64,000 nt of DNA from an uncultured Candidatus Saccharibacteria bacterium (GTDB lineage Bacteria; Patescibacteriota; WWE3; CAZQFB01): assembly GCA_964592525.1 (NCBI GenBank), contig CAZQFB010000001.1, positions 65,419 to 129,418 on the forward strand. Direction: 5' to 3'. Position 1 is the first letter of the stretch. Every line of letters starts with the position of its first letter. The position numbers and the translations under genes are program-made. The notes under the pieces were generated by a model. That model had not been told where the DNA came from. It was given only the letters and a program-made list of their open reading frames with translations, and made no database searches. Positions 1 to 28,789 of this stretch are shown one piece after another.

Positions 1-2
1 CT

Positions 3-494
3 TATAATCAACTGGCAGAATTACCTAAAGAGATTGGGTTATTATCAAATTTAAAGCAGCTGCTAGGCTCTAGAAATAGTCTACGAAAGCTTCCCTTAGA
101 AATAGACGCTCTTGAATCTTTAGAGATTATGGACCTGTCTTATAACCGTTTGGAAAGTTTCCCTCCGGAATTAGCGGAAATAACAACTTTGGAAAGCCTT
201 AAATTAAATGATAATCGCATACACTTATTACCAGATACTTTAGGAGATTTAACTTCTTTAGTTACCCTGGACCTGGCACGAAATAGCATCAATCACCTAC
301 CCCCAAGTGTTGGTAAATTGCTTTTTTTAGAAACATTGGACTTGAGAAATAATGGCCTAAATCAGGGTCTACCGAATGAAATATTACTTTTGCAGGCTAA
401 TCTGAATACCCTTTATCTTTCTGGTAATAATATTCCGCTTGCTCAACGTGAAGAAATGCTTAAGGTTTTAGTAGGCACCGATATTTACTTCTAA
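3..494 (+). CDS. Leucine-rich repeat (LRR) protein, 5'-truncated at the window edge
   Basis: The reading frame is open from position 3 and continues into the listed ORF 129..494. It contains repeated LxxLxLxxNxL units (e.g. LESLKLNDNRIHLLPDTLGDLTSLVTLDLARNSINHLPPSVGKL), a typical LRR periodicity. Confidence 0.6.
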   Translation, partial: YNQLAELPKEIGLLSNLKQLLGSRNSLRKLPLEIDALESLEIMDLSYNRLESFPPELAEITTLESLKLNDNRIHLLPDTLGDLTSLVTLDLARNSINHLPPSVGKLLFLETLDLRNNGLNQGLPNEILLLQANLNTLYLSGNNIPLAQREEMLKVLVGTDIYF

Positions 495-512
495 TTTACT
501 GCTCCCAGAGTT

Positions 513-3347
513 ATGAAAACGATTCTTAATGCCGAGCAAAAAGTTGCCGTTCAACACACTTGTGGACCATTATTAGTAATAGCTGGAGCTGGTACTGGTA
601 AAACTAGAGTAATAACCGAAAGAATAATTTATTTAATTAAACAGAAAAAGTATTTGCCACAGTCTATCTTGGCACTCACCTTTACCGAAAAAGCAGCTAG
701 AGAAATGGAAGAGCGGGTGGATATTTCTTTACCATTAGGTGCCCACGATACTTGGATTATGACCTTTCATTCTTTTTGTGATCGTGTTTTAAGGGAAAGT
801 GCAATTGAGCTGGCATTAGCTCCAGATTTTCAGGTTTTAACTGAAGCGGAAAGTTTAAGATTATTGGCGGAAGTGGTTGTGGGTTTGGATCTTAGCTTGC
901 TTAGCCCACCGAATAATCCGACCAAGTTTTTACAGTCAATCTTGTCCTATTTAAATCGGTTACAGGATGAGTTAATTGATGTTGCTAAGCTGACGCAGTT
1001 TTTTGCTGATCAGCAATGGGATAGTGAGGAAGAAAAGCACAAAGCCGAAGATTTAGTCAGTATTTATAAAGAGTATCAAGCAATAAAAAAGCGGCAAGAT
1101 TTATTAGATTATGCTGATTTAATAACATATACATATCAAGCATTTAAGAGCAATAACATCTTTAAAAAAAGATATCAACAACAATTTAAAATGGTTTTGG
1201 TGGATGAATTTCAAGATACAAATTATGCCCAAATCAAATTGTTAGAGGCGCTAGTAGCAGATGATAAAAATATTATGGTTGTTGGAGATGATGATCAAAG
1301 TATCTTCCGGTGGCGAGGTGCTGCGGTATTCAATGTGCTTGAGTTTGAACAGTATTTTCCTGGAGCCAAAACGATCACGCTAGTCGATAATTATAGGTCG
1401 CCTCAAAAACTTTTAGATTGTGCCTACAGGTTGATCCAACATAACAATCCCCATCGTCTGGAGAACAAAATTGGTGTCAGCAAACGTTTGAAAGCGCAAC
1501 TGGATGAGAAGGGTGAGCTCAAAATTATCAAAGCTGTAGATGAGGAAGAAGAGGCGGTGTTTGTTGCACAGGAGATTAAATCTTTAATTGAGAAGGGTTA
1601 TTTATATAATGATATTGCTGTTTTGGTAAGAGCGAACCACCATGGTGACAGTTTTGCGAGAAGATTCTCTCTGGAAAGAATTCCTTATCAAAGAAGTGGT
1701 GTGGATAAGTGGTACCACGAACCGATTGTTAAGGATCTGATAGCTTATGTAATGCTTATAGCCAATCCCTTTGATGACATATATTTTTACCGTTTCCTCA
1801 CCTCTCCTCATTTAAGTATTAGTGGTGTTGAAATATCTAAAATTGTTAATCAGGCTAGAAAGAGCAATAAAAGTTTGTATGAGGTTGCGAAGCAGAGCTT
1901 TAGTATAGAGGTCATGGAATTGTTACAGAAACATCTGACGACACCCAGAAGAAGAATAGGCGAGCTGTTATATGAGTATATTTATGGTTCTGGATTGCTA
2001 GAGAGGTTGAAGGATGGAGCAATAATTCAAGATGTCAAGGATGCTCGTTTAATCTCTAGGTTATTTGAGGAAGTGTCTAGATTTGAAAAGAATAGCTTAG
2101 ACCCGTGTGCTTACTCCTTCTCTAAATATTTAGATTTAGTCTATGCTACCAGTGGCTCTTCGGAAGATTTTGATCTTGAAGAAAACTCTGTAAAGATACT
2201 CACGATACATGCCTCTAAAGGATTAGAGTTTCCAGTTGTCTTTATGGTTAATCTCGTTAAAGGTAGGTTTCCTAGTGTCAACAAACACGATTCCCTGCTA
2301 GTACCAGAAACCCTTATTAAGGAAAAATTGTCTGTTAATATAGCTGATCTTCATCTGCAAGAAGAAAGGAGGCTTTTTTACGTTGGCCTTACTAGAGCCA
2401 AAGCAATAATATATTTTACTTTCGCTGATAAATATGGTGTTGGTAAAAGATATAGAAAAATGAGTCCTTTTGTCACTGAAGCTCTTGATCAGTCTTTAGA
2501 AAAATACATGCTCAAAACCGTACACCACTTGCCGATGTTTCACATGTTTATAAATGATAAGTATAGCGATATAAAGGGTACATATAGTACCCCTATAAAT
2601 AGGTTAGAGTATATAAGCTATTCACATCTAGATACCTTTAATGTATGTCCGTTGCAGTACAAATATCGTTATGTGTTGAAAATACCTGCCATTAGAAGTG
2701 CCGCAGCTTCATATGGGACTGCTTTACATGAAACTCTACGGGATTTTTATACTGGCTTAAAGATTGGTAAAAAGTGGAACAGGAAAAAATTATTAGCTTT
2801 ATACCAAAGCTACTGGTCTGCAGAAGGTTATGAGAGCAGAGAACACGAGGCAAGGAGCAAAAAGGAAGGGGAACTAGCTTTAAGTGAGTACTATAACAAA
2901 CAGCATCATCCAAATCAGCTTCCGCTATATATTGAAAAACAGTTTCTTATTTCTTTTAAGAGCATCTCTATAAAGGGTGTTATTGATAGAATAGATCAAT
3001 TGTCTGATGGTACGATAGAGATAATTGATTACAAAACCTCAAAACCGTTAACGAGTATCCAACTTAAAAAAGATCTGCAACTGTCCTTATATGCGATGGT
3101 TGTCAGCTCGCCTCAATTTTTAGGGGTACCTCTGGCAAAACAAAAGGTTAGTATCTATAACTTTCAGGATCATAACAAAAGAACTTCTACCAGGAGCAAG
3201 GAGGATATTGAAATACTGAAGAAGCATATAGAGGGAGTTGTTGAGGAGATTAATCAGAGCAAGTTTCCTCCAAAAGTTTCTCCATTATGTAAGTATTGTT
3301 CCTATCAGATGCTCTGTGATGCTTATCAAGGAGATTACCAACATTGA
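513..3347 (+). CDS. UvrD/Rep-family SF1 helicase fused to a C-terminal PD-(D/E)XK Cas4/AddB-like nuclease domain with a Cys cluster (AddA/AddB-like helicase-nuclease)
   Basis: The N-terminus has a Walker A motif (GAGTGKTRV) and UvrD motifs (TFTEKAAREM, VLVDEFQDTN). The C-terminus has the EIIDYKTSK PD-(D/E)XK motif plus Cys residues (CPLQYKYRY ... CKYCSYQMLC) typical of Fe-S RecB-family nucleases. Confidence 0.75.
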   Translation: MKTILNAEQKVAVQHTCGPLLVIAGAGTGKTRVITERIIYLIKQKKYLPQSILALTFTEKAAREMEERVDISLPLGAHDTWIMTFHSFCDRVLRESAIELALAPDFQVLTEAESLRLLAEVVVGLDLSLLSPPNNPTKFLQSILSYLNRLQDELIDVAKLTQFFADQQWDSEEEKHKAEDLVSIYKEYQAIKKRQDLLDYADLITYTYQAFKSNNIFKKRYQQQFKMVLVDEFQDTNYAQIKLLEALVADDKNIMVVGDDDQSIFRWRGAAVFNVLEFEQYFPGAKTITLVDNYRSPQKLLDCAYRLIQHNNPHRLENKIGVSKRLKAQLDEKGELKIIKAVDEEEEAVFVAQEIKSLIEKGYLYNDIAVLVRANHHGDSFARRFSLERIPYQRSGVDKWYHEPIVKDLIAYVMLIANPFDDIYFYRFLTSPHLSISGVEISKIVNQARKSNKSLYEVAKQSFSIEVMELLQKHLTTPRRRIGELLYEYIYGSGLLERLKDGAIIQDVKDARLISRLFEEVSRFEKNSLDPCAYSFSKYLDLVYATSGSSEDFDLEENSVKILTIHASKGLEFPVVFMVNLVKGRFPSVNKHDSLLVPETLIKEKLSVNIADLHLQEERRLFYVGLTRAKAIIYFTFADKYGVGKRYRKMSPFVTEALDQSLEKYMLKTVHHLPMFHMFINDKYSDIKGTYSTPINRLEYISYSHLDTFNVCPLQYKYRYVLKIPAIRSAAASYGTALHETLRDFYTGLKIGKKWNRKKLLALYQSYWSAEGYESREHEARSKKEGELALSEYYNKQHHPNQLPLYIEKQFLISFKSISIKGVIDRIDQLSDGTIEIIDYKTSKPLTSIQLKKDLQLSLYAMVVSSPQFLGVPLAKQKVSIYNFQDHNKRTSTRSKEDIEILKKHIEGVVEEINQSKFPPKVSPLCKYCSYQMLCDAYQGDYQH

Positions 3348-3409
3348 AAACGGCACTTGACTAACTATAGGTTTTAAGCAATAATAGCTTTATCTTTCAA
3401 ATCACATTA

Positions 3410-3628
3410 GATCGCAGGAGGTGATCAGTGTGCGTCGACGAAATTAAGAGGGAAGTTCAGGAGGACCCCACGAAGCGCGTTCCTCGTGGGGTATGTCGGT
3501 GTGATTGTGCTCTCTGCGATCGTGGAGAACACAATCTTTGCCCAAGTAGGTTGTGCGGTTTGGGTTATCCCGAGCCTTCAACTCCACATCAGGATCCGTA
3601 ACTAACGTTACGGATCCTCTTTTTTTGC
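3410..3628 (+). ncRNA. Candidate structured small RNA (GC-rich intergenic segment; identity unresolved, 5' end tmRNA-like)
   Basis: It lies in a non-coding gap between convergent genes and is markedly GC-richer than the flanks. There is long-range complementarity between GATCGCAG (3410-3417) and CTGCGATC (3514-3521), and an internal hairpin CCCCACGA/TCGTGGGG (3465-3492). It ends in a hairpin plus T7 run at 3591-3627. The 5' sequence GGAGGTGATCAGTGTGCGTCGACG resembles the tmRNA 5' consensus. Confidence 0.3.
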
Positions 3629-4563
3629 TTAAGTACTTGCCAGCGGATTTTGTCGGCTGTTTGAAAAAGTTTATACCCAACCGGGTCTATGATAAGATCC
3701 CAAGCTCCTGGGTATTCAATTAATTCTGCACCGTAACCTTCTTTAAAACGGTGAAAGCCATACCAAGGATCCTCTCTAGCTACTGGTTGGGGAAGGGCTC
3801 CCCACATATCTAACTGGGAACAGCCAATTTTTTTCCCTAACCTAATCGCTTCCCACATGATTAGGTTGTTAGCCATCACCTCTTTATGTTCAGTACTTGA
3901 ACCACCATAGGGGTAATAAAAAGTATCTTTGTAGCTCATTAAAAAGTAAGCGGCTAAGGGTTTATTTTGGTAAGTGGCTATTAAAAGGTATGCCATATTT
4001 TTAGCAGTCAGCATCTTCCATAAAGTATGGTAGTACTTATCAGGATGAAGGTGAAAACCTTGTCTAATGGCAGTTTCTTGCTGCAAAAGCAAAAAAGTAT
4101 TAATGTCTTCAGCTCTTTCCACCCTTACCCCTTTCTTCTGGGCCAGCTTAATGTTGTATCTGGTTTTGGGGTGCATCTTTGTTAACAGTTCTTCTTCTGA
4201 AGGGGCTATTTCTAGCATAAAGGTAGCCGTGGCAAAGGTTGGTTGAGTTTTCAATAGTTGGTATTTAGTTTGGGGTATTTGGTAGGAAAGGGGTGCATTT
4301 GGCACATCAATTTTGATATGTGTACAATGGTGTTCTTTGCCTGAAGTAAAAAGAATATCCAAATCTAAATCTTTAGGCTGAAGACGGGGTAAATAACCTA
4401 CCTTTTTATTACTAAAGGGTATTGAGTGCAGAGTGTATTGAAGCTGACCAATGCGAACACTAGGGGTACCCATCTTAGTTTTAAATTCTCCCCACTCCGG
4501 TGATTGCACGACATGGTCTGGATATTTATTCATCTTTACTAAAAAGTTTACACCATTCCTCAA
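3589..4563 (-). CDS. FemAB-family peptidoglycan interpeptide-bridge aminoacyltransferase
   Basis: Fem/FemX-like pattern (KTRYNIKLAQKKGVRVERAEDINTFLLLQQETAIRQGF ... YYPYGGSSTEHKEVMANNLIMWEAIRLGKKIGCSQLDMWG). An alternative start is Met11 (4533). Confidence 0.55.
   Translation of the reverse strand: MRNGVNFLVKMNKYPDHVVQSPEWGEFKTKMGTPSVRIGQLQYTLHSIPFSNKKVGYLPRLQPKDLDLDILFTSGKEHHCTHIKIDVPNAPLSYQIPQTKYQLLKTQPTFATATFMLEIAPSEEELLTKMHPKTRYNIKLAQKKGVRVERAEDINTFLLLQQETAIRQGFHLHPDKYYHTLWKMLTAKNMAYLLIATYQNKPLAAYFLMSYKDTFYYPYGGSSTEHKEVMANNLIMWEAIRLGKKIGCSQLDMWGALPQPVAREDPWYGFHRFKEGYGAELIEYPGAWDLIIDPVGYKLFQTADKIRWQVLKQKKRIRNVSYGS
3591..3627 (+). terminator. Rho-independent terminator-like hairpin (AGGATCCGTAAC-TAA-CGTTACGGATCCT) followed by CTTTTTTT
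   Basis: A perfect 12-bp inverted repeat with a 3-4 nt loop followed by a T7 run on the + strand. It has A-rich flanks on the other strand, so it may act bidirectionally for the convergent genes. Confidence 0.55.
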
Positions 4564-5251
4564 AAGTTAGTGTTTCGGCTCTTCTTCTCGGATCAATACC
4601 ACAACTATTAAGCAGCTCTAGCGCAAAGACCTTTTTTAGCATTTTACGGGGATGGGAAAAACCCTTATGAAGAAAATTCATGAACTTAATCTTATTTTCA
4701 ATCTTAGCGGGATCTTTCTTAATAGTGATCAGAGCGCTTTCTACCTTGGGGGGAGGGTTAAAAGCTTGTGGCGGTATGGTTTGAAGGTATTTAGCTACGC
4801 CGTAGAGGAGGACAAAATTTGCTAGGTAAGAGGCTTTAGGTGGTTTAGCAGTTATTTTATCTGCCACCTCTTTTTGTACAAGAAGGGAAAGTTTTTCTAT
4901 CTCTCCCAGCTCGCCCAATACCAGTCTGTGTAGGAACGGAGATGTAATTTGGTAAGGGAGAGAGCTAACAATAGTAAGTGGACTTTGTGTTAATCGGGTA
5001 ATTTTTAAAATGTCACCGGCAATGATTTCTACATTTGTTCCATCAAACTTTTTCTTAAGAAAGGGAATCAGTTCTTGGTCAAATTCTACAGCGATTACTT
5101 TAGCTGCTTGTTTAGCCAACTCTTCTGTGACAGCCCCCTTACCTGGTCCAACCTCCAGCACAATAGTGTTATTTGTTATCTCTCCACTGCTTACCAGTTG
5201 GGCGATAACTTCTTGGTTGATAAGGAAGTGTTGACCTAAAACTTTTTTCAT
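4526..5251 (-). CDS. rsmA: 16S rRNA (adenine1518/1519-N6)-dimethyltransferase RsmA/KsgA
   Basis: QHFLINQEVIAQLV followed by the SAM-binding motif VLEVGPGKGAVTEEL; about 240 aa as for KsgA. Confidence 0.8.
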   Translation of the reverse strand: MKKVLGQHFLINQEVIAQLVSSGEITNNTIVLEVGPGKGAVTEELAKQAAKVIAVEFDQELIPFLKKKFDGTNVEIIAGDILKITRLTQSPLTIVSSLPYQITSPFLHRLVLGELGEIEKLSLLVQKEVADKITAKPPKASYLANFVLLYGVAKYLQTIPPQAFNPPPKVESALITIKKDPAKIENKIKFMNFLHKGFSHPRKMLKKVFALELLNSCGIDPRRRAETLTFEEWCKLFSKDE

Positions 5252-5964
5252 TAGGGAATAATGTAAATATCAGTGTAGCGAGCACTCCACCAACCTTCAT
5301 GGACATTTTCAAATCCGAGATCAACCATATTCCCTTTAATGCCACCACCAATATCTTGAGCGCTGCAGATTCCGTAGGCGGGAACATAGAAAGCTGTGCC
5401 CAGCGGTATTACTTCAGGGTCGACAGCACAAATCCCGTGGGTCACTTTTTTACCGGTTGCTGTTCTTCCTGTACAGCCAAGACAATTACCGTCATAGGAA
5501 GTAGCCCAAACGTTAATTTTTTCCCGATATTTAATTTCTCCAAGATCTTCCGTAGCTAGTCCCCGGATGATGATCTTGGTACCTTTCAAGATTATTTCGT
5601 TGGTTGGTTCTGTGGTTTCAGTATTAATTAAATCTCTACTAACTTCTTGCCCTTGCCAATAAGTCAGGTCGTAAGTTCTGGTAATCTTCCCTACAACCCC
5701 TTCTTGTAATATTTCTTGATATCCCACCTCTTTTTCCTCATCTTCTTGCACCTCAATTTCAAAGGGAATCTCTTCTTCTTCAAGTATCACCTCGCTACTA
5801 AAAGTACTACTTGTTTTAAGGCTGTAGGCGGTATTTTGGACATCTGTATCTTGAGCGGATACTGCTGGCAAGTGACTTATTAAAGCCATATCTTGAGTGA
5901 GTGTTTCACTGAATAGGAGCGGTGAGGTTAAAGCAATAATAGTAGCTACGATAAGAGCTTGCAT
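5251..5964 (-). CDS. Secreted G5-domain + 3D-domain (MltA/YabE-like) cell-wall protein
   Basis: N-terminal signal/TM segment, acidic linker, a G5-like segment (GVVGKITRTYDLTYWQGQEVSRDLINTETTEPTNEIILKGTKI) and a C-terminal 3D domain (ATSYDGNCLGCTGRTATGKKVTHGICAVDPEVIPLGTAFYVPAYG ... DIGGGIKGNMVD). Confidence 0.6.
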   Translation of the reverse strand: MQALIVATIIALTSPLLFSETLTQDMALISHLPAVSAQDTDVQNTAYSLKTSSTFSSEVILEEEEIPFEIEVQEDEEKEVGYQEILQEGVVGKITRTYDLTYWQGQEVSRDLINTETTEPTNEIILKGTKIIIRGLATEDLGEIKYREKINVWATSYDGNCLGCTGRTATGKKVTHGICAVDPEVIPLGTAFYVPAYGICSAQDIGGGIKGNMVDLGFENVHEGWWSARYTDIYIIP

Positions 5965-5981
5965 AAAGTTGAATTAAGCGT

Positions 5982-7835
5982 TTAGACTCTAGCACTAAAG
6001 TGTTCTTGCAGCAAATCAGGCGGTATATCCTGGACAAACCGGGACATCACCCCAAATTGTAGGTTGCCAAAATACCTTCTATTTCGCGCGTAAGTGAGGT
6101 GTAATTTTTTCTTTGCTCTAGTGATCCCTACGTAACAAAGTCTCCTTTCTTCTTCTAGTTCGTCGGGTGATCCTAGAGCTCGGTTGTGGGGAAATAACCC
6201 TTCTTCCATACCAATCATAAAAACAGTCTTAAATTCTAGACCTTTAGCACTATGTAGCGTCATCAAGTTAATAGCCGCAGATTCTTTGGGAAAGTTTACA
6301 TTAGGGAGTTGGTCGTTTTGCACCAGAGAAACATTCTCTAAAAAATCATCAAGATCAGCGAACTGGGCAGCTACTGTCCGTAACTCTCTAACATTTTCTT
6401 TTCTTTCTCTATCTTCTTCTGTGTTGTGAGCATATTTATCAAGATAGGCGGTGACCTTTAGTATTTGATCCAATAACTCGATCACACTCATGCCATCCAC
6501 TTTGATTGAGGGTCTATATTCTTCAAATCGTTGTTTCCTTTTTTTCCCCAATTTAGTCACTCTTTCAAGAGCGACACTATCTTGGGGATTTCTTATCAGT
6601 CTTAAATAGGAGAGCACGTCCTTTACCTCCTTTCGCTCATAAAATTTTATCCCCCCAACGATGCGGTAGGGCATACCCCAACGCATAAAAGTGTCTTCTA
6701 AGGCTCGGGATTGAGCGTTGGTACGATAGAGTACGGCATAATCATCAAAGGAAAGATCTAGATTTTTTATTTCCAGCTCTTCTTTAAGGTTTAACAGGGA
6801 AGAATCAGCCTTAATTTCACTTAGAATCTTCATGGCAATATATTCGCCTTCTTCTTGTTCGTTACTGGCTTCAAATAAAGATACTTTTTCCCCATCGTCA
6901 TTGTTGGTCCATAAGTCTAGTTGGAGGTGGTTTTTACCGTGCTTGATAACCTCGGAAGCAGCCTTGATAATTGATTTAGTGCTGCGGTAGTTTTGTTCCA
7001 AGCGAAAAATTTTTACGTTGTTAAAGTCACGTTCAAATTGAAGAATATTTCTAAAGTCTGCCCCTCGCCAAGAGTATATGGCTTGATTGACATCACCTAC
7101 CACACAGATATTAGAATGGGTTGCGGAAAGAAGCTTAACTAAAGTATATTGGGCGTGATTGGTATCTTGGTATTCGTCCACTAAAATATATTTAAAGCGT
7201 TTTTGGTAAATTTTCAGAATGGTTTGGTTCTGCTTAAATAATTCAACGGTTTTGGTTAAGAGATCACCAAAATCTACGGCATCATTAAGCAGTAATTTTT
7301 TTTGGTAAAGCGGAAATATTTCGGCTACCGTTTTTTGAAAGTAGCCATGGGCATATTGAGCATATTCTTCAGGACCAATTAGTTCGTTTTTAGCTCCATT
7401 TATGGAGTTAAGAACTGAAGCAGCCTTAATATTATTTGGGCTATAACTTGTTTGGTTAATAAGTTGTTTAAGGAGAGCTATGGAATCATTATCATCATAA
7501 ATCGCAAAACTTTTTGACAAGCCCAGATGATGACCTTCGCTGCGAAGCATACGGGCACAAAAAGAGTGAAAGGTGCTGATCCAAGGAGACGCGATGTGAT
7601 CTGTCAGTAGTTGATTAATACGATCTTTCATTTCTAACGCAGCTTTGTTGGTGAAGGTGAGGCACAATATTTCTGATGGTGCTAATTTCTTTTCGTTTAT
7701 TAGATAGGCTACTTTATGTGTTAAGGCTTTAGTTTTGCCGGAGCCTGGACCAGCTATGATTAAGCTCGGTCCTTCCGTTTCAGCTACTGCTTCCTGTTGT
7801 TGCTTGTTTAAATTAGCCAAGATATGATTAGTCAC
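5982..7835 (-). CDS. pcrA: ATP-dependent DNA helicase PcrA/UvrD family
   Basis: Walker A motif AGPGSGKTKALTHKVAYLI, motifs LTFTNKAALEM, ILVDEYQDTNHAQY, VVGDVNQAIYSWRGA and C-terminal LHSAKGLEF ... YVGITRAK. Confidence 0.8.
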   Translation of the reverse strand: MTNHILANLNKQQQEAVAETEGPSLIIAGPGSGKTKALTHKVAYLINEKKLAPSEILCLTFTNKAALEMKDRINQLLTDHIASPWISTFHSFCARMLRSEGHHLGLSKSFAIYDDNDSIALLKQLINQTSYSPNNIKAASVLNSINGAKNELIGPEEYAQYAHGYFQKTVAEIFPLYQKKLLLNDAVDFGDLLTKTVELFKQNQTILKIYQKRFKYILVDEYQDTNHAQYTLVKLLSATHSNICVVGDVNQAIYSWRGADFRNILQFERDFNNVKIFRLEQNYRSTKSIIKAASEVIKHGKNHLQLDLWTNNDDGEKVSLFEASNEQEEGEYIAMKILSEIKADSSLLNLKEELEIKNLDLSFDDYAVLYRTNAQSRALEDTFMRWGMPYRIVGGIKFYERKEVKDVLSYLRLIRNPQDSVALERVTKLGKKRKQRFEEYRPSIKVDGMSVIELLDQILKVTAYLDKYAHNTEEDRERKENVRELRTVAAQFADLDDFLENVSLVQNDQLPNVNFPKESAAINLMTLHSAKGLEFKTVFMIGMEEGLFPHNRALGSPDELEEERRLCYVGITRAKKKLHLTYARNRRYFGNLQFGVMSRFVQDIPPDLLQEHFSARV

Positions 7836-7879
7836 GAGGTCTATCTTAACAAATGTTTAGCTGAAAATAAGGAGGAACA

Positions 7880-8971
7880 ATGGCATTAACTATCGCAATA
7901 AACGGCTTAGGTCGGATTGGGCGGGCGGCATTAAAGATTGCTCTGGATAGAGAGGATATCAAAGTGGTGGCGATAAACGACTTGCAGGATGTTAGGGTTC
8001 TGTCGTACCTGTTAAATTACGATACCGTATATGGTGCTTACGAAAGAATGGTTAGTGCGGAACGGGATGGGGTAGTAGTGGCTATGGAAGATGTGACTCC
8101 TAATTATGAGTATGTGTCAGAGTCTTCCGGCAGTAATCATAGCGATTATTTAATTGTGGATGAGACAAAAATTAAAGTCTTTAACCAGAAAGACCCCAAC
8201 CAGATACCTTGGGGTGAGTTGGGTGTGGATGTTGTTCTGGAGTGTACGGGAGTATTTACTGATTATGAAAAGGCTAAAGCTCATTTGGCAGCGGGGGCAA
8301 AAAAAGTCATTATCTCCGCACCTAGTAAGGGAGAAGGTGGAAAGACACTGGTTTTTGGCACAGAAAGTCTGGAACATGAGTTGAACACAGCGATTATCTC
8401 TAATGCTTCTTGCACCACAAATTGTGTCGCCCCAGTGGTTCAGATTATGGAGGATACGTTTGGTATAGATAAAGCTTGGTTAACCACTATTCATTCTTAT
8501 ACTGCCAGCCAGAATTTAGTTGATGGTTCGCACCACAAAGACCTTCGTAGAGGGCGAGCGGCCGCCGCCAATATTGTACCCACCACTACGGGGGCAACAA
8601 AAGCGGCTACGGAAGCGGTGCCTTCGCTTAAGGACAAGTTTGAAGGAGTGGCTATCAGGGTGCCGACGATTAATGTGTCCTTTAGTATAATTACAGCTAT
8701 TCTCAAACAAGGTACTACTATGGAAGAGCTCAACCAAACTTTTATTAAAGCGAGTGTCGAGGATAGGTACAGGGGAATTGTGACTACCACGGTTGAGCCT
8801 TTGGTATCTTCTGATTACATCAAAAACCCCCATTCAGCTATAGTGGATATGGATCTTACTCGCGTTCAAGAAGGGACCTTTGTGACTGTGTTTGCTTGGT
8901 ATGATAACGAATGGGGTTACGCTACTCGCTTGGTAGAGATGGCAAGTTGGCTGATGGGGCACTCTAACTAG
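7880..8971 (+). CDS. gap: Glyceraldehyde-3-phosphate dehydrogenase
   Basis: INGLGRIGRAALKIAL NAD-binding N-terminus and the catalytic SNASCTTNCVAPVV motif. A GGAGG RBS sits 8 nt upstream of the ATG. Confidence 0.9.
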   Translation: MALTIAINGLGRIGRAALKIALDREDIKVVAINDLQDVRVLSYLLNYDTVYGAYERMVSAERDGVVVAMEDVTPNYEYVSESSGSNHSDYLIVDETKIKVFNQKDPNQIPWGELGVDVVLECTGVFTDYEKAKAHLAAGAKKVIISAPSKGEGGKTLVFGTESLEHELNTAIISNASCTTNCVAPVVQIMEDTFGIDKAWLTTIHSYTASQNLVDGSHHKDLRRGRAAAANIVPTTTGATKAATEAVPSLKDKFEGVAIRVPTINVSFSIITAILKQGTTMEELNQTFIKASVEDRYRGIVTTTVEPLVSSDYIKNPHSAIVDMDLTRVQEGTFVTVFAWYDNEWGYATRLVEMASWLMGHSN

Positions 8972-9138
8972 ACTAACCTTGCTTGCGTTTGGATCAGTTC
9001 TTCTAGCCCTGGTGTGATCAAATCCTTTTCGCTTTAGCCTACGCTTCTCACCTCTGGTCAACCTCAGAGAGAACGACACTGTTAAACTTCCCTTGGGTGA
9101 TTGGATTGGGACATACTAGCACACTATGGGTTTTATGG

Positions 9139-10113
9139 CTAGTCTTCTTCAGAGGGAAGATCGGCTATTCTGGTGGGTATTTTGTTGAACATCTCTTGCG
9201 TGATCGTAAACACACGTTCATCCCCTTCCTTTTGCAGATAGTATTTGGTGTTATCTTGCGGGTTCCCGTTGGTAATGATGTTACCGACCAAAATAGTGGT
9301 GTCTTGCTCGTTCGCCGTGATAATAAATCTTTTAGCTGGGCTGTTAAATCCGGTTAATTCTTCTTCAAGACCTAAATTAACATCAACTGCTTTAAAGTTA
9401 CTCAACAGGGTGAGAAGAGGTGTCATGGCAGTTTCAGAAAGTTCTACTCTCAATGGTTTAGTGATTACCCATTTATCTTCTTGTCTTTCAACTACTAAGC
9501 CATTGCCATTTTCGCGACCCTCTATTTTAGCGATACTGTCTTTTCCTATGGTAAGTATTGTTAAGTCTCTCAACTCTGGTTGGTTAAAAGTCTGTCTGAT
9601 ATTTTCTGGATAAAGATAGACATAGGGCTCTCCCGCCTTTCTAATATAAGTGCTTAAAAAATCGGGACCAGCTTTACCCACGTAAAAATCAGCAATCACT
9701 TCGTCTTTGTTGTTAATACTTACTTTAATGCCCTTTTCATCAACCCCAAATTGCGCTTGATTAATTTCATTTTTGGAGACCAGCTCGGTTCTTTCAAGGG
9801 ATAAACTTTTGTTAATAATAGCTTCAATTAACAACTGATCAGCGGGAACATTATTGCTGGTTTCCACCAACCATTGCTCATCTTTTAGAGTGACTTTTTG
9901 TTCCAGGTTATTAATGATTATGGAAAGTTGGTTAATTTCTTGTTTATCATTGGTATTCAAGAAAGGAGTAGCTTTATCTGCTCTAATTATGTGAAAAGGA
10001 TCTTTAATTAGAATAATCATTAAGACTATTACTACTAAAGCACCAGAGAGCAAGTAGGTGGTGGTAATATTTGACGGCTTGGTTATATCTAGTTTTAAAT
10101 TATTCAAATACAT
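9139..10113 (-). CDS. DUF4340-like membrane-anchored protein, third gene of the ABC/GldG-type exporter cluster
   Basis: Single N-terminal TM segment then a soluble domain. Position and size match the DUF4340 gene that follows GldG-type auxiliary proteins. It overlaps the upstream gene by 14 nt. Confidence 0.4.
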   Translation of the reverse strand: MYLNNLKLDITKPSNITTTYLLSGALVVIVLMIILIKDPFHIIRADKATPFLNTNDKQEINQLSIIINNLEQKVTLKDEQWLVETSNNVPADQLLIEAIINKSLSLERTELVSKNEINQAQFGVDEKGIKVSINNKDEVIADFYVGKAGPDFLSTYIRKAGEPYVYLYPENIRQTFNQPELRDLTILTIGKDSIAKIEGRENGNGLVVERQEDKWVITKPLRVELSETAMTPLLTLLSNFKAVDVNLGLEEELTGFNSPAKRFIITANEQDTTILVGNIITNGNPQDNTKYYLQKEGDERVFTITQEMFNKIPTRIADLPSEED

Positions 10114-12346
10114 ACTTTTTTTTAGCCCGATAACGAGCTCTTACTATGCCAATGGTTAATATTACTAAGATTGGCATCACCATATTAATCAGTTTAATTT
10201 TATTGGTTTGGGTTTCAGTGTTGAAATTAATGAGCGGACGATTTAAATTGGCCTTACTTCTGATACCGATTAATCTTTCATCCTGGGTCATATAATCTAA
10301 GACATTAAGCGTAAAGATAAAGTTACTTTGCGTTCGTTGCAGCATTGAAGGCTCTAAGAAGTTGGCGTCGCCCACGACCATGATTTTGGCTGTTGGATTT
10401 TCCGTGTCTAGAGTGTACTCCTTTTCACCCAAATGGGCTGGGATATCTTCCGTTTTGAATTGAGTGGTATAGCCTCCTGTATAGAGAGCGGCTAATGTAT
10501 AGGGTCCCGCTAAGTCTTCTCTCTTAAAATTTTGTTCCGGAGAAAGGTTAAAAGGTTCTTCTTGGAGAAAACTTTCCTTTGATGATTCCAAGATAGGTAT
10601 TAAGTTTTCTTTATCCGGTGTTAACTCCAAACTACTGACCCAAGGTAACGTAACCGTATCTAATCTGTTTACCGTAATATGTTCCTTCATTCCCTCACCA
10701 ACAACTTTAACCCAAAAAGGGTAGGGGGTGATGATATTCCCAAAACCAGTATTGAAAGTGGCCAGATCTGCTGAAGAATCTAAAACGAGTTTATTGGTTA
10801 AGCCCACCCCAATTTGCTCTAGTAACTGATCCAAACCAGTATTATGGGGTGTAGCCGTAAGGTCATTAGCTACCGCCACACCTTCGGTGGTAATTAACAA
10901 ACCAGTGCCTCTAGTGACTAATTGGTCTAATGTAAATATTTCGTCTTTGGAAAGATCGGTTGGGTTGTGGATGATAATAGCCTTGAGGGCATCGGTGGTG
11001 GGGTTTAAAGACGTGAGCTCGATAAGTTGGGTCGTGTAGAGAGTAGAAAATAGTTCTTGGAGGTCTTGAGCAGTTTCTAAATTAGAGGAGAAGATACCTA
11101 CTACCGGATCAGTTTCCCTTAATAATCTTGTGGTAGCAGCTATGATCTCATATTCTAAGTTATTGGTATTGTTAATTACAGGTAGAACTTCTTTTTTATC
11201 AGCATAGGTAATAAGCATCCCCAAATAGCCGTTACTAACTTGAAAGCGGTCTCTTTCAATTTCATTAAATTGGAGAAGCGGTATGCCTAAGGTTTGTGTT
11301 TCTTGGGCGATAGTAGCTTTTTCTGCTACGTTGATATTTTTAATCACTAAATTACCTTCCGCACTATTTTGCATATCTTGAAGGAGGTCGGCAGCTTGTT
11401 GTTTGACTAAAGCATATTGAGGGGGTAGCTCCGGAGAAAAATAAGTATTAATACTAATAATATCGGGTAATTCTTTGAGGATATTTATTGTTTCTGGAGA
11501 AAGCGAGTTTTGTTTATTTTCGGTTAAATCCCATCTTAGCGGAGATAGGAACACCAAATAATTAAAAGCTAAAGCTAAAGCCAGAATGAGGGCAGCTTGT
11601 ATAGTTGTACTGTGCCAGAAAGAGTGAGTTGTTCTTTTCGTGCGCATGCTAAGTACAACAACATTAAGAGTAATAAATACAATTACTAAAGAAGTGAAAT
11701 AACTAATGTCTCTAAGATCTAATAAGCCTCTTAAACCATTTTCATAATGTGAGGCGGCACCCAGAAATACCGCTATTACTTGAATTATTTCTGGTAGTTG
11801 ACTGGTGATTAAAGTAGAACCCAAAAGATAAATAACGATCGCTAATATTAAGCTGATCATAAAAGCAGCTATCTGATTCTGGGTCAAAGAAGATATTAAT
11901 TGACCTAAAGCTACTAAAGTGGCACTAAATAAGAGAAGGTAAATATATCCAGAAAAAACCGTTCCCCAGCTAAGATTACCTAAAAGAGAAATGCTGAAAG
12001 GAATACTGAACGTCAGGATGACGGTCAGGAATAAGAACAGAAAACAGCCTATAAATTTACCCGCTACTGCTTGAATATTGGTGATAGGTAATGTTAGTAA
12101 CTGCTCGATCGTGCCAGATTTATTTTCCTCCGCCCACAGTCTCATCGTTAATGCCGGGATCATAATTAACAGTAACCAAGGAGCAATATTGAAAAATTCT
12201 CTCATGGAGGCTTGGTTCTGGATAAAAAAGCTGGTCCAAAACAACCAGTTGGTAAATAAAAAGAAGACACTTACAAAAATATATGCGGTGGGTGAATTAA
12301 AATAAAAATTGATTTCCCTTTTAGTTAAAGTTAAAACGGTTTTCAT
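10100..12346 (-). CDS. ABC-2 family permease fused to a GldG-like auxiliary domain
   Basis: The N-terminal roughly 240 aa has multiple hydrophobic helices (ABC-2 permease-like). The C-terminal roughly 480 aa is a periplasmic domain flanked by TM segments, resembling GldG (ABC-type gliding-motility-associated auxiliary component). Its start overlaps the stop of the ABC ATPase (ATGA). Confidence 0.55.
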   Translation of the reverse strand: MKTVLTLTKREINFYFNSPTAYIFVSVFFLFTNWLFWTSFFIQNQASMREFFNIAPWLLLIMIPALTMRLWAEENKSGTIEQLLTLPITNIQAVAGKFIGCFLFLFLTVILTFSIPFSISLLGNLSWGTVFSGYIYLLLFSATLVALGQLISSLTQNQIAAFMISLILAIVIYLLGSTLITSQLPEIIQVIAVFLGAASHYENGLRGLLDLRDISYFTSLVIVFITLNVVVLSMRTKRTTHSFWHSTTIQAALILALALAFNYLVFLSPLRWDLTENKQNSLSPETINILKELPDIISINTYFSPELPPQYALVKQQAADLLQDMQNSAEGNLVIKNINVAEKATIAQETQTLGIPLLQFNEIERDRFQVSNGYLGMLITYADKKEVLPVINNTNNLEYEIIAATTRLLRETDPVVGIFSSNLETAQDLQELFSTLYTTQLIELTSLNPTTDALKAIIIHNPTDLSKDEIFTLDQLVTRGTGLLITTEGVAVANDLTATPHNTGLDQLLEQIGVGLTNKLVLDSSADLATFNTGFGNIITPYPFWVKVVGEGMKEHITVNRLDTVTLPWVSSLELTPDKENLIPILESSKESFLQEEPFNLSPEQNFKREDLAGPYTLAALYTGGYTTQFKTEDIPAHLGEKEYTLDTENPTAKIMVVGDANFLEPSMLQRTQSNFIFTLNVLDYMTQDERLIGIRSKANLNRPLINFNTETQTNKIKLINMVMPILVILTIGIVRARYRAKKKYVFE

Positions 12347-13272
12347 GATTCTTTGGTAGTCAGGTTATGAAAAGTATCTTCTAATGAAGCTTGTTCTTCA
12401 TGTAATTCTAATAATTCAGCTTGGCAATTAACAGCTAGTTTGAAGATTTCGGTTCTGATATCTTCCTGGGAATTAACCTGATATCTAGTTATGCCCTTGC
12501 TGTCCTTTAATTCTTTAATTACAGTGACTCCTTTGAGCTGACCTAACTTATCTTTAGATAAACTGCCTTCCCGCCCTATTTTTATAGATAGAGTGTGCAT
12601 TCCGGAAGATTTTTTCTGTAATTCTTCGAGCGATCCTTCAGCCACAATAGTTCCTTGGTTAATAATTATGACCCGATTACATAAGGCAGCTGCTTCCGGC
12701 AGAATATGAGTACTGATGACAATTGTTTTGGTTTTTCCAATCTCTTTGATTAAATTTCGTATTTCCACAATTTGGTTGGGGTCCAGACCGGCAGTGGGTT
12801 CATCTAAAATTAAAATGTCAGGATTATGGATTAAGGTTTGGGCGAGCCCTAATCTTTGCCGATAACCTTTGGATAATACTGACACTGATTTATTGATGAC
12901 CTCTTTTATTCCGCAAATAGCTGCTACTCTCGTAATGGCGCTTTTGTGGTCTGGGGAGGGTATCTTTCTTAACGCCGCAATGAAATGGAGATATTCACTA
13001 ACCAGCATGTCGGTATAAAGAGGATTTTGTTCAGGTAAATAACCTAAAATCCTTTTTATCTGCAGAGGGTTTTTTTCGACAGTTAAATTATTTATTAATA
13101 CCTGACCTTTAGTGGGACTAATGTAACCAGTGATTATTCTCATGGTAGTTGTTTTACCAGCGCCATTAGGTCCTAAAAATCCCACAATTTCAGAGGGGGT
13201 AACTTTAAAAGAGATATCCTTCAGTACCGTTACTGGTCCAAAGTCTTTGCTGATATTAATAAGTTCAATCAT
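12343..13272 (-). CDS. ABC transporter ATP-binding protein (GldA-like)
   Basis: Walker A GPNGAGKTTTMRII, ABC signature LSKGYRQRLGLAQ, Walker B ILILDEPTAGLD. Confidence 0.85.
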   Translation of the reverse strand: MIELINISKDFGPVTVLKDISFKVTPSEIVGFLGPNGAGKTTTMRIITGYISPTKGQVLINNLTVEKNPLQIKRILGYLPEQNPLYTDMLVSEYLHFIAALRKIPSPDHKSAITRVAAICGIKEVINKSVSVLSKGYRQRLGLAQTLIHNPDILILDEPTAGLDPNQIVEIRNLIKEIGKTKTIVISTHILPEAAALCNRVIIINQGTIVAEGSLEELQKKSSGMHTLSIKIGREGSLSKDKLGQLKGVTVIKELKDSKGITRYQVNSQEDIRTEIFKLAVNCQAELLELHEEQASLEDTFHNLTTKES

Positions 13273-13327
13273 TGCTAGGTTGGTATTTTAATTTTTTTCC
13301 CACTGTAATTCAAGCTTAACACACAAG

Positions 13328-28020: not shown

Positions 28021-28057
28021 TTGACACCCCTTAGCACGTGCAATAGTATAGTGCCAA
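28021..28057 (+). promoter_or_regulatory. Sigma70-like promoter overlapping a CIRCE-like HrcA operator upstream of hrcA
   Basis: TTGACA at 28021-28026 with a TAGTAT/TATAGT -10 candidate 17-20 nt downstream. TTAGCAC-N13-GTGCCAA (28031-28057) has the same spacing as the CIRCE consensus TTAGCACTC-N9-GAGTGCTAA, with 7/9 matches per half-site. Confidence 0.55.
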
Positions 28058-28069
28058 ATAGATATTAAT

Positions 28070-28789
28070 ATGAAAGATTTAACAGAACGACGTATTGAAC
28101 TTTTAAAAGCTATTATTGAAGAGTATGTGCGTACTGCTGAACCAGTTGGTTCTAAGAATCTGGTTAAACGTTACAGACTTAGGTGTAGTCCGGCTACAGT
28201 TCGTAATGAAATGGCGGTGTTAGTTGAAGGTGGTTTTTTAAATCAACCCCACACCTCGGCGGGTAGAATTCCAGCGCCTATGGGTATACGCTATTACATT
28301 AGAAGTTTGATGGAAGAAGAAGCCTTGCCTGTACTTGAGGAAGTAGCTGTCAAACAGCGTTTGCTTGATGTGTCCGAGGATACCGCTTTGTTGCTTAAGA
28401 ACGCTGTTAATGCTTTAGCAGATCGTACGGAATTAGCAGCGGTAGTGCTAATGGATAATAATCTATTGCTCAATTCTGGTTTAGTAAACCTCCTTGAATG
28501 TCCGGAGTTTTACGATATTGATGTAACCAAAGCAGTTTTATCTACTTTAGACAATCCCACCCTGTTAAAAGAAATATTTTCTAAAGGTTTGTCTGAAGAA
28601 GTAGTGCATGTTTTGATTGGTGATGAGCTGGAAATGGTAAATTTTGAGGATGTGGGGACGGTTTTTGCTGATTTTAATTTTGGTAGTACTGGGGGAACTA
28701 TTGCGGTATTTGGACCTAGGAGAATGCATTTTCCTTCTGTCCTTCCCACGGTACGCTACTTCAGCGCCCTCCTTAGCGAATTATCTTAA
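28070..28789 (+). CDS. hrcA: Heat-inducible transcription repressor HrcA (short form)
   Basis: N-terminal winged HTH EPVGSKNLVKRYRLRCSPATVRNEMAVLVEGGFLNQPHTSAGRIPAPMGIRYY, a classic HrcA signature. Confidence 0.85.
   Translation: MKDLTERRIELLKAIIEEYVRTAEPVGSKNLVKRYRLRCSPATVRNEMAVLVEGGFLNQPHTSAGRIPAPMGIRYYIRSLMEEEALPVLEEVAVKQRLLDVSEDTALLLKNAVNALADRTELAAVVLMDNNLLLNSGLVNLLECPEFYDIDVTKAVLSTLDNPTLLKEIFSKGLSEEVVHVLIGDELEMVNFEDVGTVFADFNFGSTGGTIAVFGPRRMHFPSVLPTVRYFSALLSELS

Follow-up and report, generated by a model that had tools for sequence, protein, structure and literature searches.

A GC-rich, hairpin-rich element between convergent helicase and FemAB genes: a candidate small-gene cassette in an uncultured Patescibacteria lineage

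The question raised by this locus is what occupies a GC-rich, apparently structured stretch of DNA lying between two conserved, convergent genes, one for a UvrD/PD-(D/E)XK helicase-nuclease (stop at 3347) and the other for a FemAB peptidyltransferase. We analysed it within a window of 64 kb, i.e., a 64,000-nucleotide stretch of a contig from an uncultured Candidatus Saccharibacteria bacterium. The original prediction, made from the letters of the sequence, was of an unannotated RNA gene in a gap of about 280 bp. The gap is intergenic, but its true size is 241 nt (3348-3588), because the FemAB ORF reaches 3589 and the terminator discussed below falls within the last FemAB codons. A GC-rich island in AT-rich surroundings had also been proposed, and this was confirmed: the GC content of the element is 0.50, compared with a mean of 0.41 (0.408) for the window, which places it in the top 0.3% of 200-nt windows. 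With 150-nt windows, values were 0.52-0.55 at 3400-3599 and 0.32-0.40 in the flanks. The gap that holds the element is the GC-richest of 16 intergenic gaps, and GC peaks as high are also found within ordinary genes of the window.

There are five GATC sites in 236 nt, as against about 0.8 expected at the density of the window, with two of them in one palindrome; the idea that this cluster is an origin or Dam methylation signal was dropped, as no link could be made. No second copy of any part of the element longer than 13 nt occurs in the 64-kb window and its five hairpins are mutually unlike, which argues against a repeat of the REP/BIME/MITE type. A flanking 8-nt inverted repeat (TTAAGCAA/TTGCTTAA) is at chance level.

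That the element is a discrete, unannotated unit is borne out by promoter-like and terminator signals of its own (Table 1), and by the finding that the ORF within it, termed ORF57, is missing from the recorded proteins of the NCBI assembly; its only database source is a Logan contig, on which a gene caller predicted it. Transcripts from the promoter candidate are predicted to start near 3392-3395. Only ten sites that match the consensus this well occur in 60 kb, counting both strands, and by our arithmetic the chance that one would fall, correctly oriented, within the 60 nt preceding the element is roughly 0.5%. Two others immediately precede long ORFs (sites at 28021 and 49177, ORFs at 28070 and 49211, respectively), so that the consensus seems to be used by the organism. 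From its sequence and position, we infer that the site would function as a promoter.

At the other end, the perfect 12-bp hairpin followed by seven T residues that had been noted originally is present just as described, with arms at 3591-3602/3607-3618, and is the best intrinsic terminator in the window. It stands first in the list of terminators for positions 1-20000, and no equal combination of perfect stem and T-run was found in a 60-kb scan. On the plus strand it has the features of an intrinsic (Rho-independent) terminator; on the minus strand no T-run follows the hairpin, so that it acts on the plus strand only. Terminator-like sites in the host are not enriched over shuffled sequences, and the other convergent gaps are unstructured.

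Table 1. Features of the element and contents of the corresponding helicase/FemAB slot in related loci
Feature	Position	Strand	Description	Values
Element	3395-3630	+	GC-rich island between convergent helicase and FemAB genes	
Promoter candidate	3357..3385	+	Sigma-70-like, TTGACT-17 nt-AATAAT	10/12 consensus matches
Extended Shine-Dalgarno (SD)	3416..3426	+	AGGAGGTGATC	11-nt perfect complement of canonical 16S rRNA 3' end
ORF57	3428..3601	+	GTG start, TAA stop 3599-3601	57 codons
Hairpin H1	3403..3432	+		-12.7 kcal/mol, z -3.6; minus strand only -6.1, z -1.8
Hairpin H2	3465..3492	+	9-bp perfect GC-rich stem, 10-nt loop	-15.8 kcal/mol; minus strand -19.8
Hairpin H3	3503..3536	+	14-bp near-palindrome around CGATCG	-17.9 kcal/mol, z -4.6
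Hairpin H4	3549..3583	+	13 bp, several G-U pairs	-16.9 kcal/mol, z -3.3; minus strand -13.1, z -2.1
Alternative long-range helix	3410..3521	+	GATCGCAG(GAG)/CUC.UGCGAUC around H2	8 bp perfect, 3410-3417/3514-3521
Intrinsic terminator	3591..3627	+	12-bp perfect stem, 4-nt loop, then CTTTTTTT	-19.5 kcal/mol, z -7.4
FemAB gene 3' end	3589..3630	-	Extra codons (…KRIRNVSYGS, stop) across terminator A-tract and hairpin	~8-10 codons
L086 slot		FemAB strand	96-aa ORF; promoter-like site, RBS, terminator	GC 0.57 vs 0.44
L088-L090 slot (WWE3-type lineage)		FemAB strand	92-aa ORF; promoter-like site, RBS, terminator	GC 0.54 vs 0.42
L003 and L004 slot			Empty	
L005 slot			233-aa gene	

It had been claimed that no protein-like ORF explains the gap, but this overlooked ORF57, which fills the element on the plus strand. 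The GGAGG core of its extended SD sequence (3417-3421) is followed by a 6-nt spacer to the start codon, and the GTG at 3428 is the sole possible start because there is an in-frame TGA at 3422-3424. The SD sequence has a single exact copy in the 64-kb window. The host 16S rRNA lies outside the window, and the comparison was made with the canonical 16S 3' end; the anti-SD is rarely lost in bacteria (PMC9297842). SD sequences are rare in this host, with GGAGG at only 3 of 44 long ORFs, and pairing within H1 offers another explanation for the GTGATC portion of the long SD. On the minus strand, the identity of GATCACCTCCT to the 16S 3' end stops at 11 nt and there was no SSU match, which disposes of a 16S fragment. 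At its 3' end, ORF57 has its stop codon within the stem of the terminator.

ORF57 thus resembles a genuine short ORF in having a ribosome-binding site at a functional spacing and a frame that ends in a terminator, but not in its codon usage: its score was -0.18 to -0.21, as against a mean of +0.28 and a minimum of +0.01 to +0.09 for host genes, and among the six frames its own does not score highest. In simulations, ORFs of at least 57 codons arose by chance in 15% of cases, and a second plus-strand frame is also free of stop codons; such an ORF together with even a 4-5-mer SD was found in 1.6% of composition-matched simulated sequences. The predicted product (MCVDEIKREVQEDPTKRVPRGVCRCDCALCDRGEHNLCPSRLCGLGYPEPSTPHQDP) is hydrophilic and charged, with seven cysteines and no hydrophobic stretch. 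Seven in-frame Cys codons compare with 2.25 expected (P ~0.007), and 7/10 TGY triplets are in frame, although one 6-nt periodic run accounts for three of the seven, so that these may not be independent. That the peptide binds metal through thiolates, or forms a small fold around zinc, would be a guess from the CxCxCxxC…C…C pattern. AlphaFold, run on the single sequence, gave no confident fold (pLDDT 66, pTM 0.36), and the prediction was not used. A type I toxin-antitoxin locus was rejected, given the hydrophilic, charged product with no hydrophobic stretch and the lack of a PADLOC match.

Neither ORF57 nor the 78-aa minus-strand ORF, the latter rightly described as featureless in the original prediction, gave any match in Pfam (E <= 1), NCBIfam (E <= 10), PHROGs, PADLOC or PDB sequences, the best E-value for ORF57 in the last of these being 1.5, with an unrelated protein. 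A k-mer-seeded search of 5.8 billion protein clusters recovered only ORF57 itself, while an exhaustive HMMER search of 1.84 billion representative proteins recovered ORF57 and, besides it, a protein of 1908 aa that matched over an 18-residue Cys repeat. Pattern and tblastn scans of metagenome and viral contigs for ORF57 found none, nor did tblastn against phages and plasmids. With the DNA of the element, blastn and nhmmer against all fetched loci, and blastn against phages, were negative, and blastn against plasmids gave one 36-nt chance match (E = 0.9). A hairpin-pattern scan of metagenomes picked out 19 contigs, unrelated and nearly all of high GC, that carried the seeded hairpin only, and the palindrome pattern was not found in viral contigs. 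The single second sighting, in Logan SRR11845623, is 100% identical over 3003 nt. The element is a singleton: in the collections searched, nothing is related to it at the level of DNA, peptide or structure.

A first helicase-based contig scan for synteny found nothing close, and an alignment-based helicase scan yielded 80 loci, at no more than 38% identity, in which no gap was clearly enriched in GC. In closer relatives obtained via protein searches (helicase 45-52%, FemAB 55-61%) the element was also absent, so that the homologous loci keep none of the paired positions whose conservation would have been expected of an RNA gene. What they have in its place differs from one to another (Table 1). 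The cassettes of L086 and L088-L090 show host-like codon usage in the annotated frame, which is clearly the best, and their products are orphans that share no sequence relationship with ORF57 or with one another; among the three WWE3 contigs the small gene shows no substitutions. These cassettes are like the element in their slot, in being GC-rich relative to the host, and in having a promoter candidate, a purine-rich RBS, a hairpin terminator and an orphan product. They differ in lying on the opposite strand and in having longer ORFs with host-like codons, whereas ORF57 is shorter and Cys-rich, with non-host codons. The occurrence of unrelated cassettes in at least three Patescibacteria lineages, with none in others, suggests that the helicase/FemAB junction may be a site at which small accessory genes recurrently land or are born.

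The explanation we prefer, with confidence a little short of even, is that a small-gene cassette, complete in itself and specific to the lineage, occupies a variable slot here, with an orphan Cys-rich peptide as its most likely product. The sigma-70-like promoter would give rise to a transcript of ~235 nt, at the 5' end of which H1 would display the very long SD sequence in or beside its loop. Ribosomes would start at GTG 3428 and produce a 57-residue, Cys-rich, hydrophilic peptide, and transcription would stop at the strong intrinsic terminator that encloses the stop codon. The terminator of the cassette may have overridden the original end of FemAB: eight FemAB homologues end 2-7 residues past the conserved RW..L motif, and the Pfam FemAB match stops at residue 305/324. 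Speaking for a peptide cassette is the complete and tight layout of promoter-like site, SD, start codon, ORF, and a terminator stem that takes in the stop codon. Compared with its host, the cassette has the look of something foreign or young: it is GC-rich, has non-host codons, and combines a strong SD with a canonical terminator, both of which are seldom used in this genome. That the promoter candidate is used, that ORF57 is translated and that its peptide is active are presumed from these sequence features. In a published survey, long GC-rich intergenic regions classed as "unknown" were in more than half of the cases found to be unannotated genes or short ORFs (PMC6429828).

The alternative that comes nearest, though distinctly less probable, is one of those named in the original prediction, a non-coding, lineage-specific, structured sRNA of ~235 nt made from the same promoter and terminator, which would fit an sRNA gene equally well. 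ORF57 would then be a by-product of GC-rich, stop-poor sequence, as might be suspected of an ORF whose length is not significant, which leaves a second frame open, and which encodes an orphan peptide. This rival is a live one because the codon usage of ORF57 is unlike that of host genes, in a frame that is not the best of six. Such an RNA could act by base pairing, by binding a protein, as a cis-antisense RNA on the 3' end of the FemAB mRNA, or through an AGGAGG loop that binds ribosomes or an SD-recognising factor. This reading, however, leaves to coincidence an 11-nt complement of the anti-SD lying just before the sole start codon of an ORF that ends in a terminator, and in relatives the slot carries coding cassettes, not RNAs.

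The structural evidence bears most directly on the sRNA alternative. All of the helices named in the original prediction are present where it had placed them, and the element is a GC island within an AT-rich genome and carries four local hairpins that are non-random. In composition-matched simulations, a perfect 9-mer hairpin such as H2 (arms 3465-3473/3484-3492) had P ~0.01, and a perfect 12-mer P ~0.0005. The loop of H1, AGGAG (3416-3420), exposes the SD core, while GUGAUC and the GUG start codon are in the stem. Because of two G-U pairs H1 is specific to the plus strand, and H1 and H4, both with G-U pairs, are stable on the plus strand only; by contrast, H2 gains stability on the minus strand, while H3 and H5 behave symmetrically, H3 being equally stable on either strand. 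The long-range helix, originally extended to about 12 bp, exists as 8 bp, but a match of that length is expected by chance (P = 0.29 by simulation). It is mutually exclusive with H1 and H3, and the minimum-energy fold of the RNA lacking the terminator does contain it.

Folding of the whole element gave -91.8 kcal/mol. Its z was -5.1 for the plus strand and -6.3 for the minus strand, which makes it an outlier with respect to the other intergenic gaps of the window and to coding segments. It was the most stable 236-nt segment tested, GC-matched coding DNA giving -61 to -80 kcal/mol; for 32 coding segments, the mean z was -0.25 to -0.6 and the minimum -4.1 (one value). When the terminator was omitted, however, z was -2.7 (3395-3588) or -2.4 (3436-3588), in the lower tail of coding DNA and no greater in size than for the cassettes of the relatives (-2.5 and -2.9). 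As the score falls from -5.1 to about -2.5, the extreme folding signal owes much to the terminator. The original impression of high structure therefore stands for the local hairpins, which are non-random, but much of the signal comes from an ordinary terminator. A covariance model of the element (R1; 3400-3590, 54 bp) matched only the element itself in 374 kb of related loci plus the 19 pattern-selected metagenome contigs, so there is no support from covariation, and no Rfam family was found even permissively. Typical trans-acting sRNAs are reportedly without extensive self-structure (PMC6429828, the GC-IGR study).

A dual-function RNA, both a regulator and the template for a peptide, would be a hybrid of the sRNA and peptide readings. 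The dual-function RNAs SgrS/SgrT, SR1/SR1P and RNAIII/delta-haemolysin are ~200-500 nt long and structured, with their own promoter and terminator and a short translated ORF; they have demonstrated base-pairing targets and are conserved within genera. The layout of the element is like theirs, but there is no sequence or Rfam relationship.

Rather unlikely, in our view, is that the element has no product of its own and is the long, structured 3' untranslated tail of the helicase mRNA, a spacer or insulator, or a decaying remnant of inserted foreign DNA whose hairpins and terminator would do no more than halt the neighbouring transcripts and make them stable. There is no terminator from the helicase stop (3347) to 3591, so that helicase transcripts probably end at the terminator there, and in L003 a gap of 109 nt has a nested hairpin terminator at the same helicase/FemAB junction. 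The absence of the element from all relatives implies that it is dispensable for the flanking genes, its non-host composition and codon usage would suit a foreign fragment, and the FemAB frame is altered as an insertion would do. Four extra hairpins, a promoter-like site among the top ten, and an 11-nt SD with a fitted ORF nevertheless exceed what a spacer needs, in a host that is otherwise without elaborate terminators and whose other convergent gaps lack structure; and no similarity to phage, plasmid or other DNA points to a source.

Two bolder proposals are together less probable still, and we regard them as a long shot: that this is a new lineage-restricted structured RNA of the CPR that works as RNA, and possibly also codes for a peptide, or that the junction is a hotspot of independent birth or capture of GC-rich small genes across CPR lineages. 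If the element worked as RNA, the 11-nt 16S complement in H1 could bind and hold 30S subunits, or rival mRNAs in pairing with the anti-SD, and the 3' end of the transcript could pair with the FemAB mRNA.

It is most improbable that the gene is on the minus strand, as a 47-codon ORF running from a GTG at 3587 to a TAA at 3444-3446 and translationally coupled to FemAB. Its start comes one base after the FemAB stop codon, the small genes of L086 and L088 likewise lie on the FemAB strand, and its codon score (+0.12 to +0.14) is the best of the six frames. One of six frames must be best, however, and this score is among the lowest seen for host genes (minimum 0.09, mean 0.28). The ORF has no SD, no ATG, no family match and no downstream terminator with a T-run on its strand; its product would be highly charged, with no hydrophobic core, and those of the relatives are unrelated to it.

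Last, the proposal that the element belongs to a known structured RNA family (tmRNA, 6S, SRP RNA, RNase P or another) can be set aside with near certainty, since Rfam and ARAGORN were negative, the folds contain no acceptor/T-arm, 6S rod or SRP domain IV, and the element is absent from all relatives, whereas such RNAs are near-universal housekeeping genes. None of the 4227 models of Rfam 15 reached its gathering threshold anywhere in the 64-kb window, and a permissive scan (E <= 10) of 3300-3700 returned two chance matches only, both with E > 1: ncr982, with 20.9 bits against a threshold of 50 and covering only the terminator, and a snoRNA. ARAGORN found no tRNA and no tmRNA in the window. Of the hallmarks of a tmRNA, neither program detected a tRNA-like domain, a tag reading frame or pseudoknots. 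In favour of tmRNA were two resemblances, the string TTCAACTCC, read earlier as a T-loop-like motif and located in H4, and a tmRNA-like 5' end. The latter amounts to 16 matches in 25 columns with 3 gaps at 3417-3440, and the string at 3416+ that was likened to the 5' consensus GGGGcUGAUUCUGGAUUCGACGG is AGGAGGTGATC plus GTG, i.e., an SD sequence and a start codon. What the element shares with tmRNA is this loose 24-nt match and its being a discrete GC-rich element in an AT-rich genome. For 6S RNA, not only was there no Rfam match, but the folds are separate hairpins or multibranched.

Returning to the peptide cassette, bacterial metallothioneins (SmtA/BmtA, PF02069; mycobacterial MymT) are proteins of ~50-60 residues with Cys-X-Cys and Cys-X-X-Cys motifs, His and few aromatic residues, and their sequences are lineage-restricted, making homology hard to find. 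ORF57 is like them in size, Cys motifs, His and scarcity of aromatics, but this is a resemblance only: its Cys content of 12% is below that of typical metallothioneins, there is no metal-resistance gene context, and a metallothionein of the PF02069 family was rejected because there was no Pfam match at E <= 1 and no NCBIfam match at E <= 10. The element also has much in common with the short ORFs of the GC-IGR survey (Stav et al. 2019, PMC6429828), which occur in long GC-rich gaps of AT-rich genomes, with a purine-rich RBS and a terminator stem after the ORF. Recognition of those ORFs required, however, that the ORF be conserved and the terminator be the sole structure, whereas the element has no homologues and has extra structure, and that pipeline would label it "retained for further analysis", i.e., unclassified (PMC6429828).

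If the preferred explanation is right, the element adds another orphan small gene to those of a lineage that is uncultured and poorly sampled, and is of interest mainly for local annotation. It also illustrates that a hairpin-rich GC gap in an AT-rich genome need not be an RNA gene, the strongest signal of structure here being a terminator and the tmRNA-like string a ribosome-binding site. If a CPR symbiont did make a functional Cys-rich peptide, or an sRNA that binds ribosomes, this would merit a short study, although no new mechanism is indicated. Of more interest is the comparative view, in which unrelated GC-rich cassettes occupy one conserved junction in reduced genomes.

For the GC-rich element between the helicase gene and the convergent FemAB gene, the best-supported reading is a lineage-specific autonomous small transcription unit in a variable slot, with the architecture of the cassettes that occupy the same slot in relatives. 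A promoter-like site, a Shine-Dalgarno sequence, a reading frame (ORF57) and a terminator together make up an autonomous unit of about 235 nt on the plus strand (see the table). The AGGAGGTGATC sequence is an 11-nt perfect complement of the canonical 3' end of 16S rRNA, the host's own 16S gene lying outside the window; loss of the anti-Shine-Dalgarno is reported to be rare in bacteria (PMC9297842). An in-frame TGA (3422-3424) leaves ORF57 no start other than the GTG at 3428, and its TAA stop codon (3599-3601) falls within the stem of the terminator. The terminator is specific to the plus strand: the T-run that follows the hairpin there is absent on the minus strand. Across 60 kb of the window, no other perfect-stem hairpin had an equally good T-run, and terminator-like sites were not enriched over shuffled sequences. 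The original description of the gap as lacking any protein-like ORF overlooked a 57-codon plus-strand frame that fills the element, and the string taken for a tmRNA-like 5' end is the Shine-Dalgarno sequence AGGAGGTGATC plus the start codon.

Features of the element and its flanks, and content of the helicase-FemAB slot in relatives
Feature	Locus	Position	Strand	Remarks
UvrD-helicase/PD-(D/E)XK nuclease	Window	513..3347	+	944 aa; upstream of element
Sigma-70-like promoter candidate	Window	3357-3385	+	TTGACT-17-AATAAT; one of only ten 10/12 matches in 60 kb
Hairpin H1	Window	3403-3432		5' hairpin, added by folding
Shine-Dalgarno-type AGGAGGTGATC	Window	3416-3426	+	Sole exact copy in window; precedes ORF57 start
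ORF57	Window	3428..3601	+	GTG start, 57 codons
Hairpin H2	Window	3465-3492
Hairpin H3	Window	3503-3536		Near-palindromic, added by folding
Hairpin H4	Window	3549-3583		Added by folding
FemAB-family peptidyltransferase	Window	3589..4563	-	Downstream of element
Terminator hairpin	Window	3591-3627	+	12 bp
Slot	L003	5210-5318		109 nt with nested terminator hairpin; helicase 49% identical
Slot	L004			Helicase and FemAB genes overlap; helicase 46% identical
Slot	L005	3096-3797		AT-rich 233-aa gene; helicase 45% identical
Slot	L086	3756-4160	FemAB strand	96-aa ORF; FemAB 61% identical
Slot	L088-L090	4919-5280 (L088)	FemAB strand	92-aa ORF; WWE3-type; FemAB 55% identical

The source organism is an uncultured Patescibacteria (CPR)-type bacterium, with two sightings: the 344-kb NCBI contig, and a 3-kb Logan contig (SRR11845623) that matches at 100% identity over 3003 nt. 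The closest helicase homologues in a search of 5.8 billion protein clusters were only 52, 49, 46 and 45% identical, and nothing above 38% was found in species-representative genomes. The closest FemAB homologues were 59-61% identical, the named matches being candidate division WWE3 and other Patescibacteria. Past FemAB lie genes for KsgA (RrnaAD), a G5/3D protein, a second UvrD helicase and GAPDH. Immediately upstream of the helicase, 129-494 encodes a 121-aa leucine-rich-repeat protein; in the related locus L004, that place is taken by RmuC and 363-aa genes.

The GC island that had been claimed is borne out: against a window GC content of 40.8%, the element reaches 0.52-0.55 in 150-nt windows, a level that ranks among the highest 0.3% of 200-nt windows, and no other of the 16 intergenic gaps is as GC-rich. 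Normal genes also contain stretches as GC-rich. All helices originally named were found in the sequence, and local hairpins like these are rare in composition-matched simulations (P ~0.01 for a perfect 9-mer, P ~0.0005 for a 12-mer), but the long-range 8-bp helix is at chance level in such simulations (P = 0.29). The full element has a folding energy of -91.8 kcal/mol (z of -5.1 for the plus and -6.3 for the minus strand), which puts it well beyond the other intergenic gaps of the window. It also exceeds all of 32 coding segments (mean z of -0.25 to -0.6, minimum -4.1), the ten of these that were GC-matched folding at -61 to -80 kcal/mol. A large share of this signal is due to the terminator hairpin, which alone has a z of -7.4. 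Thus, "highly structured" holds for the unit as a whole, whereas its body is only moderately so, because z falls to -2.7 (3395-3588) or -2.4 (3436-3588) once the terminator is removed. GATC occurs five times in about 210 nt (3410, 3423, 3518, 3593 and 3613), where the window density of 209 per 64 kb would predict about 0.8; several of these sites are at palindrome centres or in stems (CGATCG, GGATCC), and two share one hairpin.

Other structured or ORF-poor stretches were observed in the window. A gap of 120 nt separating two plus-strand ORFs (37820-37939) showed strong folding relative to shuffled sequences on the plus strand (z of -4.5) but not on the minus strand (-0.8). Rfam scans, a permissive one included, matched nothing there, and the gap may represent a leader, an attenuator or a small RNA. 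The only strongly structured coding segment of the 32 was 20000-20235, within a 748-aa minus-strand ORF (z = -4.1, plus strand). The region 26958-28069 (about 1.1 kb, 35% GC) contains no ORF of at least 57 aa, the longest being 56 and 48 aa, and gave no Rfam match; so much non-coding DNA in one piece is unusual in a compact CPR genome. The gene downstream of it (28070..28789) encodes an HrcA-like repressor and has a 10/12 promoter match at 28021-28049. A second ORF-poor stretch (36696-37480, 785 nt) has no ORF of at least 90 aa, and the Rfam match nearby was only a chance-level snoRNA. Directly after an ORF ending near 33067 is a 16-pair hairpin, GTGGACCCCTCG…CGAGGGGTCTGT (33074-33109), whose stem motif GGACCCC.CG resembles H2 (GGACCCCACG), while AGGACCCCACG is present also at 17011-17021; both match lengths are within chance expectation.

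Relatives share the order of the genes around the locus but differ in what fills the helicase-FemAB slot. The cassettes of L086 and L088-L090 are more GC-rich than their hosts (0.57 versus 0.44, and 0.54 versus 0.42, respectively), and each has its own promoter-like site, purine-rich ribosome-binding site and terminator. The two products, which match no family, are related neither to one another nor to ORF57. The cassette RNAs, with z of -2.5 and -2.9, fall in the same range as the element without its terminator. The codon scores of the two ORFs are host-like, in a frame that stands out clearly as the best, which is not the case for ORF57. More distant Patescibacteria loci showed no clearly GC-enriched gap after the helicase. 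As to the conservation in homologous loci that an RNA gene had led one to look for, blastn, nhmmer, tblastn and a covariance model (54 bp, spanning 3400-3590) found no relative of the element, either elsewhere in the window or in related loci totalling 374 kb. Nothing resembling it was present in phage and plasmid collections, and pattern scans of metagenome and viral sequences gave no resemblance beyond the seeded hairpin. The hairpin-pattern scan did turn up an unrelated high-GC metagenome contig (L092:4542-4770) in which four or more GC-rich hairpins resembling one another lie inside 230 nt, by its look a REP-like or other repeat array. The FemAB protein of the window overruns the end point of eight homologues by about 8-10 residues, which are encoded by the terminator A-tract and hairpin, as expected if the element, terminator included, had been inserted against the end of FemAB.

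What the unit makes can be said only tentatively. At a little short of an even chance, we favor a 57-aa Cys-rich peptide translated from an mRNA that is moderately structured and arose recently or from a foreign source. Counting for ORF57 as a gene are the geometry of its Shine-Dalgarno sequence, start, stop and terminator (an ORF of at least 57 codons with even a 4-5-mer Shine-Dalgarno arose in 1.6% of simulated sequences) and an excess of in-frame Cys codons (7 versus 2.25 expected, P ~0.007; 7 of 10 TGY triplets are in frame). So do its prediction by a gene caller on the Logan contig and the precedent that more than half of long GC-rich intergenic regions of unknown nature prove to be coding (PMC6429828). 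Counting against it, an open frame of this length is not by itself significant (P = 0.15), and the element has another stop-free frame on the plus strand. Its codon score (-0.18 to -0.21) lies well below those of host genes (+0.28 on average, minimum +0.01 to +0.09), and the frame is not the best-scoring one among the six. Protein and translated-DNA searches found no relatives, and AlphaFold gave no confident fold. Shine-Dalgarno use is low across the window (GGAGG in 3 of 44 long ORFs, any 4-mer core in 14 of 44), with few strong examples (7880, GAPDH; 29279), and the GTGATC half of the long Shine-Dalgarno doubles as the inner stem of H1. A foreign or recent origin would jointly explain the GC content, codon usage, strong Shine-Dalgarno and canonical terminator, and the orphan status of ORF57 would come from small ORFs being under-called and hard to detect. 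As a guess, the pattern CxCxCxxC…C…C suggests metal-thiolate or zinc binding; the tryptic peptides predicted for ORF57 include EVQEDPTK, GEHNLCPSR and LCGLGYPEPSTPHQDP.

A non-coding or dual-function small RNA is a live but less likely alternative: the codon statistics of ORF57 and the density of hairpins favor it, and the exact placement of the 11-nt Shine-Dalgarno and the collapse of the z-score without the terminator speak against it. That the unit has no product of its own, and is the 3' UTR of the helicase, spacer DNA or an insert in decay, is less probable again. A 47-codon minus-strand ORF coupled to FemAB occupies the frame with the best codon score, but that score is still marginal and we regard this reading as very improbable. 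Membership of any known RNA family is negligibly likely, as Rfam 15 and ARAGORN exclude it within their sensitivity: a gathering-level Rfam scan of the 64 kb gave no matches, a permissive scan around the element only two chance matches (E > 1), one of them the terminator, and ARAGORN found neither tRNA nor tmRNA in the window.

The element is a single-member instance of an orphan sORF or sRNA cassette, ordinary in its mechanism. The most reusable by-product of the analysis is that small GC-rich cassettes at one convergent junction differ between several lineages of Patescibacteria; the helicase-FemAB junction may be a hotspot for the capture or birth of small accessory genes.
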